Of a DNA stretch of 64,000 bases, positions 1,120 through 4,748 are shown in pieces. Position numbers and translations under genes: made by a program. This stretch comes from Octopus sinensis. Its lineage: Eukaryota. Location: assembly GCF_006345805.1 (NCBI RefSeq), contig NC_042998.1, forward strand, positions 156,674,001 through 156,738,000, given 5' to 3'. Under the pieces are notes generated by a model. The model ran no database searches and was not told the origin of the DNA. It saw nothing but the letters and a program-made list of their open reading frames with translations. The first letter of the stretch is position 1. The number at the start of each line of letters is the position of its first letter.

Positions 1120-1926
1120 AATCAACCACAACCAGAGCAGCAGCAACAACAACAACAGCAGCAACAACTAGAGCAGCAGCAGCAGCAACAACAAAATCAA
1201 CCACAACCAGAGCAGCAGCAACAACAACATCAACAACAACAACAGCAACAACAAAATCAACCACAACTAGAGCAACAGCAGCAACAACAACAACACCAAT
1301 TGACCAGTGCGGTTCTTGCAGAACTGCAACAATCGATCTGTGCTTTAAAAGGGGAAGTAGCAGGAATAAAAGCAACCATTCAGGTTGGACTCCACAATGA
1401 GGGGTCTTATCGGAATGCTCTGCTAAAGAACCTCCCTGTACCTGTACCTCTTGTCGCATTTAAGACCGCGGATTCTGCCACCCATGAAGTCATTGCCATT
1501 GGGGTGCCAGAAGACATGGCTGATCTTCAGGCTTTTGCTGCCAACTCAGCCAAAGACCTAGGCTGCGTTCCCCCAACGGGTGCTATCCGCCTTGGACGAC
1601 CTGGCCCAAAACCTAGGCTCATCAAGTTGTCTTTTACGGACCACACTGAGGCAACCTCTTACCATCTGGCCTCAGTTAAAGCTGGGCGTGAAAATCGGAC
1701 CACCTTCCGAACACGCCCAGGCTTACCGTCCGATGTACGTCCGAAGCTACGTGTAGTGGCTTCCCTGAATAGGAACTCAGCTCTACAGGAAAGCTTCAGT
1801 CTTCGGGAAGATGGACAAATCTGGAGATTTGTCAAGACTGCTGAAACGTGGAAGAGAGATACCAGCTGGTCTGAGTGCTCTCTACCCACAATAACTAAAA
1901 AGACTACAGCAACTCAGGGAAACTAA
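733..1926 (+). CDS. LINE ORF1 protein: N-terminal PHD-like zinc finger, polyQ tract, C-terminal basic region
   Basis: CHIC...CGTC...CLQC...W.FQCQAC spacing; Q-rich tract; homologous C-terminus (FRTRPGLP.DVRPKLR) in the second copy at 15360-15660. Confidence 0.85.
1090..1296 (+). repeat. CAG/CAA polyglutamine repeat with a recurring QQNQPQ(P/L)E unit
   Basis: Directly visible CAG/CAA runs; caaaatcaaccacaa(c/t)agag occurs three times. Confidence 0.95.
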
Positions 1927-1982
1927 GCCAGAACAACCTGCCATCCTCTACACACCATCATAAACTGCGAGCAGGGTACAAA

Positions 1983-4748
1983 TTGTTGTCCTTAAATGCT
2001 CGCAGTTTATGCAACAAAATACATTTGTTCAACGCCTACGTCAGAAGTGTTGACCCTGACTTCATCACTGTCACGGAAACATGGGCGCATTCCTTACTCT
2101 GTGATGGGGTTTTCAACATTACGGGGTACAACCTCTTCCGTAAGGACCGCACTAACCGCCGTGGTGGTGGTGTGATGGTCTACGTTCGTTCAAATTTTTT
2201 GGTAATTCCTTGTGCCGATTTGAACGAATCACAAGAAGAAGTTTTTTTCTGTGACGTGTGTATGACCATGTCAACACTCCTGCTTGGCGTTGTTTATCGT
2301 CCCCCAAGTTACCATCGGGACACACAGCTTTGCAATGTCCTCCGAGCTGCTGCCAGGAAAACAGCCACTTATGTGTTTATTGCAGGCGATTTCAATCATC
2401 CTGAGATCGATTGGGAGACCTTCCATTGGCCACAGAGTGCAAACGATTTTGTTGAGCTTGTGCTGGACTCAAACTGGTCACAAGTAGTCACCTCTCCAAC
2501 AAGAGGCGACAACACCTTGGACCTGCTCTTCACCACAACTCCTGAAGCGGTTATCAATTGCACTACGGAGGAACCTCTAGGTGACTCTGATCATGCTATG
2601 ATCATCGCCAATCTGGCTCTTGCGGGCAACAAAAACCTGAACCATCTCCAATCTGCTTCCTTCGATTGGAAGAGAGCAGATTGGAACCTGTACCACACTG
2701 AACTACAGCACCCAAACTGGCGTGAATTCTACAACTCTGGAGATGTGAATACTATACTCCAGAGTATCCTGGACTCAATATGGGCAGCATGTGCAGCATC
2801 AGTGCCACGTAAACAAAAAAAGAAGAACCGCCCCAAAAGGGCAATTTGGGAAACTTCAGCGGTCCGACTTGCCAGGAGGGAACGTCGGACTGCTGAACAG
2901 GAATACAGGTTGCATAAATCAGACACCAACAGGAAGAAGCGGAATAAATCCTCCAACCATCTCAAGCAAGTAACAAAAAAAGCAGTGCTTGAATTTGAAC
3001 AGTGCATAGCAGCCAATCCTGACAGTAAGGTTTTCTGGAAATATGTGCACTCAAAGCAGAGACCTCACTCTCCAGTGGGCCCTCTTCGCAACCCTCACAC
3101 AAACCAGATCACTGACGACCCCAAGGAATGCGCAGAACTCATTGCCGAGTGCTATGCAAACATATTCACTGTTGAAAGTCAAGATGTACCATCTTCACCA
3201 TCACTAACAGCAAACTCCATAACAACTATGGAATTTACACCTGCAATGCTGCAACGTCACCTTCAAAATAAGCGCAACTATGCCTCCCCTGGTCTCGATG
3301 GAGTTACATACCTGCTTCTCAAACGTGGCAGGCACTTCCTTTTACACCAGCTTTCTATTTTCTTCCAGTACTGTCTCAACAATGGTGCTACTCCGGAGCA
3401 GTGGAAAACTGCCAGTGTCATTCCTCTGTTCAAAAAGGGCGACCGCACATCACCTGTCAACTATCGCCCAGTCAGTCTCACTAGCTGTATTGCAAAACTG
3501 ATGGAATCGTGTGTCAGAGAAACACTCTGGAACTTCTGGAGCTCTCACAGTCTCATCCGACCCTCACAATATGGATTTGTCCCTAACTCCAGCTGCAGTG
3601 ACCAGCTTGTCGAGTTCCTTGAGGACATTACTCAGATTACTGACAGTGGCTCATGGGTGGATGTTGTCTACCTTGACTTTGCTAAGGCTTTCAACTCTGT
3701 GCCACACAAAAGGCTTATGGTGAAACTCTCTGCAATGGGTGTGGGGGATGACCTTTTTAACTGGTTGAAATCCTTCATCCTCAGCCGAAAGGAGGTTGTC
3801 ACAGTTCTAGGACAGCACTCTACACCATATGAGATGTCATCGGGTGTACCACAGGGATCTGTCCTTGGTCCCCTCTTGTTTGTGGCATACATTAACGACA
3901 TAGATGCCAATTTAAAGAATGCCACAGTATTGAAATATGCAGACGACATCAAGCTGTACCTTGAAATCAAGAGGACAGATCCTGATGTCTACAACTCTTT
4001 CCTGCAATCAGACCTAGACACAATGCAGCAATGGATCACAGACTGGCAACTGAAACTGGCTGTGGACAAGTGTACCACCATGCATTTTGGAGAAAAAAAC
4101 CCTGCGTTCACATACTCCCTCCACAACACTGATATCAAGAAATCCTCTTGCGAGCGTGACCTAGGCATCACTGTCAGCAGTGATTTGCGTTGGACAAAGC
4201 ATATCTCTAAGATTGTCAGGAAGGCCGAGGGTGTCTTGGCATCACTCAGCAGGTCTTTTGTTAGCCGCTCTCCAGCCATCTATTTAAAACTGTATACAGC
4301 TATGGTACGACCACACTTGGAATTTGCATCATCAGTTTGGAACCCCTATCTTGCACAGAACATTGACCTCCTGGAATCTGTCCAGAGACGTGCAACCAAA
4401 CGCATACCCTCCATCAGACACCTACCATATTCTGAGCGCCTTGTTTCCCTGGGCATGGATTCACTGAAGCTCTGGCGTCTGGCAACGGACTTGGTAAACA
4501 CCCACAAAGTTATCAACCACCTCACCAACAACAACACTGAACACCTTTTTGATCTCCATGTGTCTAACACACGTGGACATGCCTACAAAGTCAGAAAACA
4601 ATACAGCTCTCATGACTTTCGGAAACATTTTTTCACGCTCAGAGTTGCTGAAGCATGGAATTAACTGCCTGCGTCAGTTGTTGACTGCCATGACACTGCA
4701 TCTTTTAAGGCCCTCATGCTTTCCGAAATCCACCGAAACTACACCTGA
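1983..4748 (+). CDS. LINE ORF2: apurinic endonuclease + reverse transcriptase; premature TAA at 4662-4664, ancestral stop at 4746-4748
   Basis: LNARS, TETW, GDFN, SDH (APE); YLDFAKAF, GVPQGSVLGP, YADD (RT); sequence after the TAA continues LPASVV..TASFK..MLSEIH..YT as in copy 2. Confidence 0.95.

Follow-up and report, generated by a model that had tools for sequence, protein, structure and literature searches.

In retroviral and long terminal repeat (LTR) Gag-Pol genes, PEG10, and PNMA3, a slippery heptamer of the form X_XXY_YYZ stands at the end of an open reading frame (ORF) for an RNA-binding protein, and a polymerase ORF without a start follows in the -1 frame; PEG10 uses exactly G_GGA_AAC, and many gag genes end in Gln/Ser-Gly-Asn. 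A like arrangement was found in a long interspersed element (LINE), designated copy 1, in a 64,000-nt stretch of the Octopus sinensis genome (assembly GCF_006345805.1, contig NC_042998.1, positions 156,674,001 to 156,738,000 of the forward strand; this whole stretch is hereafter the window): ORF1 ended in G_GGA_AAC plus a stop codon, and ORF2, encoding an endonuclease of the APE type and a reverse transcriptase (RT), continued in the -1 frame without a usable AUG. The comparisons below make it highly probable that ORF2 of this LINE clade is made by programmed -1 frameshifting at G_GGA_AAC, which would give a fusion of the ORF1 protein (ORF1p), endonuclease, and RT. In contrast to Gag-Pol, copy 1 was a non-LTR element with APE and RT and no Pfam protease domain, the fold predicted for its ORF1p was that of L1 and not that of a capsid, and the region 5-9 nt downstream of the site held no conserved pseudoknot or stem-loop.

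G_GGA_AAC ranks among the most shifty heptamers (PMC5009743, PMC3542737), and -1 shifting in LINEs is not without precedent, since a review figure legend gives a -1 frameshift as required for ORF2 of the APE-type non-LTR elements TRE5-A and TRE3-A of Dictyostelium (PMC5911963). The ORF1 proteins of these two elements are unrelated to L1 ORF1p (PMC5006619); moreover, they are amoeba elements, and the relevant passages name neither shift site nor assay, whereas the site found here is a canonical heptamer conserved in an animal clade. Copy 1 resembled mammalian L1 and silkworm SART1 in having a bicistronic LINE RNA with ORF1p in excess, and the ORF1p of copy 1 was predicted to fold like that of human L1. 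L1, by an AUG-independent or internal ribosome entry site-like route, and SART1, at UAAUG, make a separate ORF2 protein (ORF2p) by reinitiation (PMC10275272, PMC3708506, PMC1965478, PMC3592465), and L1, SART1, and Zorro3 all use initiation events for ORF2 (PMC10275272, PMC1965478, PMC3592465), whereas the ORFs here overlapped in -1 with no stop-start arrangement. CR1/L2-lineage LINEs of subgroups CR1_5 and L2_6 have a type II ORF1 of subtype IIC with an N-terminal PHD (Metcalfe and Casane 2014, PMC4120745), and copy 1 resembled them in its putative PHD-like finger and predicted L1-type coiled coil, RNA-recognition motif (RRM), and C-terminal domain (CTD), followed by APE-RT; the word 'frameshift' was absent from the main text of that paper and from that of a 2026 survey of the vertebrate CR1 group (PMC13343379).

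Recoding near the ORF2 start of APE-type LINEs has been described in two other forms: (i) +1 shifting or, alternatively, reinitiation, as suggested for the LINEs of Paramecium (PMC5405496), and (ii) 2A-like recoding in CR1, L2, Crack, and Ingi (PMC3708506, PMC13405545). These are +1 or stop-go events rather than -1 tandem slippage, and 2A separates proteins, whereas the site here would fuse them. A large frameshifting review treats LINE ORF2 only as a case of unknown initiation (PMC5009743), the passages on such LINEs in PMC7175516, PMC5006619, PMC11203168, and PMC13343379 contain no report of a -1 frameshift, and none was found for animal CR1-type LINEs in the literature covered, Repbase reports and key older papers lying outside that coverage.

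The ORF1-ORF2 junction of copy 1

Copy 1 (233..4826, plus strand) was a near full-length member of the young subfamily A, delimited by sibling alignments and an (ATT)n tail at 4798..4826 (+). Its ORF1 (733..1926, +; 397 aa) began with the ATG at 733 inside a stop-to-stop frame at 472-1926 (+) and closed with CAG GGA AAC TAA, in which GGGAAAC occupied 1917-1923 (+) and TAA 1924-1926 (+); TAG took the place of TAA in the metagenome locus L163 (see below). The first G of the heptamer was the third base of the CAG codon, and G_GGA_AAC thus stood in the X_XXY_YYZ phase of ORF1. The ORF2 frame (1899-4664, +) was -1 relative to ORF1 and opened only six codons upstream of the heptamer, behind the last -1-frame stop at 1896..1898 (+), which set the upstream limit for any shift; in the other lineages the -1 frame opened 2-14 codons before the heptamer. 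From the heptamer onward, ORF2 (1917..4664, +) consisted of a 20-codon linker, APE from 1977, and RT at about 3438-4115. Its first AUG (2175) was codon 87 from the heptamer, downstream of two endonuclease residues, the NARS Asn at codon 27 and the ETW Glu at codon 54. Counted in the same way, the first AUG was codon 87 in subfamily A, 86 in subfamily B, 53 in subfamily C, and 24 in L163, where it lay inside the first endonuclease strand.

A preliminary description of the window had claimed an ORF1-phase heptamer directly before the stop, a -1 frame open into the endonuclease with no AUG before the first APE motifs, and retention of heptamer and TAA in a second, diverged copy; all three observations held on reanalysis. 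The copy 1 element had in-phase canonical heptamers at 10 of its 1,314 codons, 11 further long ORFs of the window had them at 12 of 5,369, and a heptamer inside the 8-codon overlap would be roughly a 2-6% event by chance; the case therefore rests on conservation and not on the single site.

Conservation of the junction in four DNA lineages

Four DNA lineages, namely subfamilies A, B, and C of this genome and L163, kept GGGAAAC followed by TAA or TAG in both phases. Copy 2 of the window (12411..15665, minus strand) belonged to subfamily B, whose ORF1 C-terminus stood at about 67% identity. Copy 2 was 5'-truncated inside ORF1, a stop interrupted it at 15488-15486, a deletion had removed 2 bases, and its ORF2 was broken, yet it carried G_GGA_AAC plus TAA at 15386..15395 (-; GGGAAAC at 15395-15389 and TAA at 15388-15386) with ORF2 again in -1. 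The older subfamily C was first met in a public run and retrieved by a pattern that contained the heptamer; it was recovered independently by ORF1 protein and by DNA upstream of the site. L163, a metagenome contig found through its endonuclease alone, had an ORF1 ending in CAG GGA AAC TAG and ORF2 in -1. Endonuclease identity among A, B, C, and L163 was 44-78%, and only 2 of the 18 four-fold and 4 of the 19 two-fold sites had one third base common to all four; all three free heptamer positions were fixed despite this scrambling of synonymous sites. The preliminary description had proposed conservation of heptamer, phase, and -1 overlap as a check, and all three were kept in every lineage with DNA.

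Genome loci anchored on both sides of the junction, de-duplicated by sequence and not by place and with anchorless loci dropped, yielded 111 distinct junction contexts. GGGAAACTA was kept in 105 of them, and both phases were intact in 90. The codon before GGA varied (CAG 62, CTG 6, TTG 20, TCG 1, ATG 3, and GTG 2) with its final G constant, and the multi-copy length classes (44, 47, 56, and 65 nt upstream; 69 and 72 nt downstream) all preserved both phases. Apart from one duplicated locus and a group with four G residues (see below), the out-of-phase contexts had changes of a single base, mostly within A runs. The best 40 of 358 candidates for the copy 1 junction in the 2.72-Gb genome were 99-100% identical, and such identity among subfamily A copies was not counted as conservation. 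A pattern just 3' of the heptamer gave 232 genome matches and its reversed control gave 0; genome searches with the homologues P0003, P0004, and P0062 (see below) returned only subfamilies A, B, and C among the scored candidates.

Two side observations concerned the subfamilies themselves. L130 and related older subfamily A copies had a second in-phase run, A_AAA_AAA, seven codons before the heptamer and inside the open -1 frame. L322 (G000:C28) joined an old subfamily A junction to a B-like 3' end, and in L325 (G000:C1) an A-like 3' end followed a B junction; these mosaics may stem from recombination between subfamilies or from nesting of copies.

Proposed course of translation

The DNA itself shows the site and its phase, the adjacent stop, the overlap in -1, the absence of a usable AUG, and the conservation of these features; the following course of translation is proposed on their basis. 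Ribosomes would start at the ORF1 AUG, and most would terminate at TAA and release ORF1p, which has 397 aa in copy 1. A smaller share, whose tRNA-Gly and tRNA-Asn are paired with GGA AAC, would slip back onto GGG AAA, resume reading at CTA (Leu), and pass through 20 linker codons into the endonuclease, giving the junction Gln-Gly-Asn-Leu-Ser and a single Gag-Pol-like protein, ORF1p-APE-RT, of about 1,340 aa. With less assurance, it may be supposed that (i) efficiency would be low (a few percent), (ii) the pause might be due not to a pseudoknot but to the adjacent or nearby stop, perhaps together with a bound protein, and (iii) the uncleaved fusion (no protease) might join an ORF1p trimer via its coiled coil and carry the enzyme to its own RNA.

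Protein trace of the site in distant ORF1 homologues

A profile of the ORF1 C-terminal half was compared with 1.84 billion representatives, yielding 134 homologues; 120 with the C-terminal block present were kept, and 14 fragments or chimeras were dropped. In only four cases did the best match reach the last two profile positions. The homologue cores had a median identity of 39% (95th percentile 49%; n = 120), and behind the conserved block stood a tail of 4-48 low-complexity residues. Gly-Asn was present in 87 of the 120 tails, whereas 2,000 shuffles gave 15.7 on average and never more than 29; removal of five profile matches that possibly touched the motif left 82 of 115 and an unchanged trend. 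The other tails had Glu-Asn (17), Lys-Asn (5), or neither (11). Glu-Asn fits G_GAA_AAC, because GGA is tolerated as XXX (PMC3542737). The motif was found 0-25 residues from the stop (three codons or fewer in 74 of 109 cases), and a motif that floats in this way is not a terminal signal.

The residue before the motif had changed at least 51 times on the homologue tree. Among the 104 Gly-Asn or Glu-Asn sites, it was Ser, Thr, Ala, or Pro in 74, Gln in 23, and Glu, Lys, or Arg in 2; it was never Phe, Tyr, Cys, His, Asn, or Asp (16.5 expected, P = 1.5e-8), the residues whose codons end only in C or U. No such gap was seen in the controls, namely positions -2, -3, and +1 and Gly-Asn elsewhere (33/104, 19/104, 19/81, and 15/50; classes counted with Ile).

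The distant homologue P0107 was predicted in one piece with the start of an APE domain, and this predicted protein links the ORF1 family to LINE ORF2s. Searches for homologue DNA found none in viral contigs or plasmids and only three distant loci in prokaryote genome contigs; among the 80 loci from a metagenome scan, L163 alone had the ORF1 C-terminal block. No naturally fused ORF1-ORF2 protein (722-2,060 aa) occurred among 7,994 scored candidates, which is weak evidence. An Atlas look-up of one homologue returned eukaryotic clusters below 0.9 and serves as a lead only.

Downstream sequence, exceptions, and alternative explanations

Several results weighed against frameshifting at this site, beginning with its downstream sequence. 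Classical -1 signals have a structure 5-9 nt downstream (PMC3542737). No stem-loop or pseudoknot was conserved at that distance here, the best structures in A, B, and C reaching -5.6 to -8.9 kcal/mol, and the folds of B and C were weak. Nor was pairing of the heptamer region with the 3' end of the element found; that end was located in 8 of 15 elements, and the best duplex there ranked 11-160 of about 290 windows. L163 had a 7-bp hairpin about 11 nt downstream, and the consensus fold of 12 sequences contained a weak 9-bp hairpin (-3.6 kcal/mol) over 50 nt downstream. Copy 1 contained a strong hairpin at 1959..2011 (+; 15-bp arms 1959-1973 and 1997-2011; z = -5.85, none of 200 shuffles as stable), which started 36 nt after the heptamer and was not common to the other lineages; it was rejected as a stimulator, being too far away and confined to subfamily A. 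A duplex with Gly-rich codons about 235 nt downstream was among the best four in 11 of 15 elements and was set aside as a weak lead, since it lay mostly within 2 standard deviations of shuffled queries, used different registers in A and B, and was absent from L163. The 3' feature shared across lineages was the nearby stop only; a nearby stop is required for shifting in pea enation mosaic virus, an umbravirus (PMC5009743). The missing stimulator lowers the probability of a classical two-part signal and not that of shifting at this site.

Further adverse points came from exceptions in the DNA. Six of the 111 anchored contexts deviated from GGGAAACTA, and outside the anchors L027, L055, L281, and L299 each had a one-base change. 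The old neighbouring pair L283/L284 had GGGAAAAAA in another phase; in this pair (G000:C11:5866061-5869460 and 5946202-5949601), a decayed locus or a distinct subfamily, ORF2 was apparently in +1 (or -2). The preliminary description had named an in-frame AUG ahead of the APE motifs as a refuting result; no AUG preceded the first endonuclease motif in three lineages, and in L163 one lay two codons before the NARS Asn, inside the first strand. L163 was also the one family outside this genome for which DNA was available, and other CR1-like families had other layouts, with ORF2 in +1 in eight of them.

The protein evidence had its own adverse points. For the 120 homologues, the codons and the -1 position of ORF2 were deduced from protein. 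The residue test indicated a purine before the site and not specifically G, and Glu, Lys, and Arg were depleted there (18.7 expected against the two seen), for which a rule of G-ending codons is insufficient; some further cause must underlie their scarcity, be it an influence of the codon preceding the shift site or a preference at the protein level. Lys-Asn, counted in 6 tails, was not enriched over other X-Asn pairs, and 11 of the 120 tails had no motif at all.

Among the alternatives, the one that fared best was AUG-independent termination-reinitiation as in mammalian L1, which would give a separate ORF2p and make the heptamer a pause or tethering signal; it was judged very unlikely. In L1, the AUG of ORF2 can be exchanged for any sense codon (PMC1965478), and SART1 reinitiation is aided by downstream structure (PMC10275272, PMC3708506). 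Here a hairpin lay 36 nt downstream in subfamily A, a CTG lay 15-16 codons into ORF2 in A, B, and C, and no canonical frameshift stimulator followed the heptamer. However, the hairpin was specific to the A lineage, the CTG was missing from L163, and there was neither a stop-start overlap nor an in-frame AUG at the stop. In B, C, and old A, the sole UGGGA coincided with the heptamer, and young A and L163 had none; thus the features of SART1 and of termination upstream ribosome-binding sites (stop-start overlap, and UGGGA some distance before the restart) were both lacking. Reinitiation also fails to explain a fixed seven-base tandem-slippage site amid drifting flanks, the swap of Gly for Glu, or a motif up to 25 codons before the stop.

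It is somewhat less likely still that Ser/Gln-Gly-Asn is a protein motif of ORF1p (for binding, cleavage, or modification), with the heptamer a by-product and ORF2 made otherwise. The predominance of small polar residues before the motif and the rarity of charged ones (74 and 2 of the 104 sites, as above, with Gln at 23) would suit this reading, and the distant homologues are known from protein alone. Against it, the four DNA lineages always had GGA AAC after G despite largely scrambled synonymous sites, the residue before the motif included Leu, Met, and Val, Gly differs chemically from Glu although a single base separates them in this site, and a protein motif would still leave ORF2 without a start.

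The genome also contained a false lead. Eleven subfamily B loci read GGGG at the site, which placed ORF2 in the ORF1 frame and thus hard-coded the -1 product. All these 4-G copies began 58 codons upstream, inside an RTE fragment, with one 5' truncation in common, and they shared flanks beyond the LINE 3' end (97.6-99.6% identity, pieces up to 6.6 kb). They were therefore rejected as proof of a fusion-competent master, representing one truncated dead insertion amplified as cargo. The amplified unit itself (L246-L255, e.g., G000:C8:7979500-7988500) was at least 6.5 kb long, stood in 10 or more places at 98-99.5% identity, and consisted of a truncated RTE, a nested subfamily B LINE with the extra G, and shared flanks; L246 retained a 997-codon open frame.

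Joining at the RNA level, by polymerase slippage adding a base in the G3A3 run or by splicing at a nearby AG, has about as little probability as a protein motif. In its favour, an in-frame 4-G variant exists in the genome, and the site follows CAG in A and L163. However, a single truncated insertion within a larger amplified unit was the source of every 4-G copy; the bases ahead of GGA in B, C, and old A are TG rather than AG; contigs of three public runs (contigs drop rare variants) showed no indel or joint at the site; and the 111 contexts included 0 independent extra-base or spliced copies, whereas genomic copies all pass through RNA and frequent slippage or splicing should therefore have left many.

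Domain organization of the element and other features of the window

Frameshifting at G_GGA_AAC would join two ORFs with the following domains. ORF1 of copy 1 encoded a Cys-rich PHD-like finger, a polyQ linker, a predicted coiled coil, RRM, and CTD, and a disordered tail ending in Gln-Gly-Asn-stop. The putative PHD-like zinc finger (832..1032, +) had eight Cys in the translation; copy 1 ORF1 had no match to Pfam PHD, and 2 of 31 homologues matched weakly (best E 6e-4). The (AAC/CAG)n polyQ run (1088..1299, +) was subfamily-specific, being absent from P0001 and represented in subfamily B by no more than short Gln runs. A model of the C-terminal 208 aa, built with 107 sequences (mean predicted local distance difference test score, pLDDT, 87), contained a helix, an RRM, and a small CTD; its top nine Foldseek matches were human L1 ORF1p (best E 3e-5), and its best VIA match was the central domain of human L1 ORF1p, 2w7a (Z 9.6, root-mean-square deviation 2.2 over 80 residues). 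On this model, ORF1 has the coiled coil, RRM, and CTD of type II (L1-like) proteins. The unconserved tail that holds the slippery site (1870..1923, +) was predicted to be disordered (last-block pLDDT mean 51, <50 at the last three residues). The preliminary description had foreseen a PHD-polyQ-ORF1-APE-RT fusion; the layout was supported, with the corrections that the N-terminus is only PHD-like and that polyQ is subfamily-specific.

ORF2 matched Exo_endo_phos, Exo_endo_phos_2, and RVT_1 above the Pfam cut-off. In copy 1 it stopped early at 4662-4664, 28 codons before the sibling end (921 aa versus 948-949 aa). Nine of the 25 listed sibling alignments of subfamily A started at 233, and two extended further 5' (143 and 146). 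The element had the LINE hallmarks of APE followed by RT in ORF2, 5'-truncated copies, and a simple-repeat tail; we take it to be of the CR1 type from its C-terminal motifs and tail, and an Atlas look-up returned generic RT clusters only. At 1959-2011, young subfamily A has a perfect 15-bp inverted repeat, in which older A copies differ by a single mismatch and to which much weaker structures correspond in B and C; this repeat could affect translation or reverse transcription.

Downstream of copy 2, a subfamily B RT-region fragment lay within a mariner-like remnant (11520-11340, -). SINE-like repeats (resembling short interspersed elements) were present at 15660-16480, 46432-46956, and 56952-57758, one of them with a 159-base tandem unit; that at 15660-16480 adjoined the truncated 5' end of copy 2. 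From their motifs, we take 20268-23462 (-) to be a near-intact 1,064-codon RTE-like ORF and 43549-46373 (+) to be a second RTE-like element, while 47547-51551 (+), 54438-56669 (-), and 58820-59791 (-) presumably represent two gypsy-like elements and a pogo-like transposase.

Junctions of other LINE families

The sequence comparison was also applied to 81 endonuclease loci from the metagenome and genome scans, which fell into 27 families; only L163 had the ORF1 C-terminal block described here. In five of the eight distant CR1-like families whose ORF2 overlapped ORF1 in +1, UUU_C stood in the ORF1 phase within nine codons of the ORF1 stop, several of them without a usable AUG. Loci of this kind on metagenome contigs were L168, the L172-L204 group, the L211-L236 group, L193, and L217; AGG_UUU_C was present in 16 of 16 readable loci of one family, and CCC/CCU_UUU_C in others. 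The UUU_C junction resembles the influenza PA-X +1 shift site, and by this analogy these junctions are candidates for +1 frameshifting in other LINEs. In another LINE family (L175:2800-3030, L165, L166, and L179), ORF1 and a -1 ORF2 overlapped by 56 codons, and G_GAA_AAC stood in the ORF1 phase 43 codons before the ORF1 stop.

Implications for LINE translation

Translation of the second ORF of LINEs is still called unclear in reviews (PMC5009743, PMC3708506), it has been argued that ORF1 functions need a separate product (PMC3708506), and the tested LINE cases, L1 and SART1, make ORF2p separately. Judged from conservation, the junction described here is well supported as real and would represent a known mechanism in a new setting, an animal LINE. 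A broader proposal, to which we give slightly better than an even chance, is that a large and old animal LINE clade (>100 families) makes its RT as an uncleaved ORF1p-ORF2p fusion by -1 frameshifting, within the ORF1p trimer and without an RNA-structure stimulator, and that, the +1 UUU_C junctions of the other families being taken into account, elements across the CR1 lineage usually reach ORF2 by frameshifting and not by reinitiation. The conserved seven-base site makes the ORF2 question a one-construct assay for the whole clade. If the proposal is true, ORF2 annotations of these elements miss about 400 N-terminal residues, cis preference and stoichiometry could be explained simply by a covalent ORF1p-RT link, and an abundant young family would provide a natural -1 site that may use a stop codon or a protein instead of a pseudoknot.

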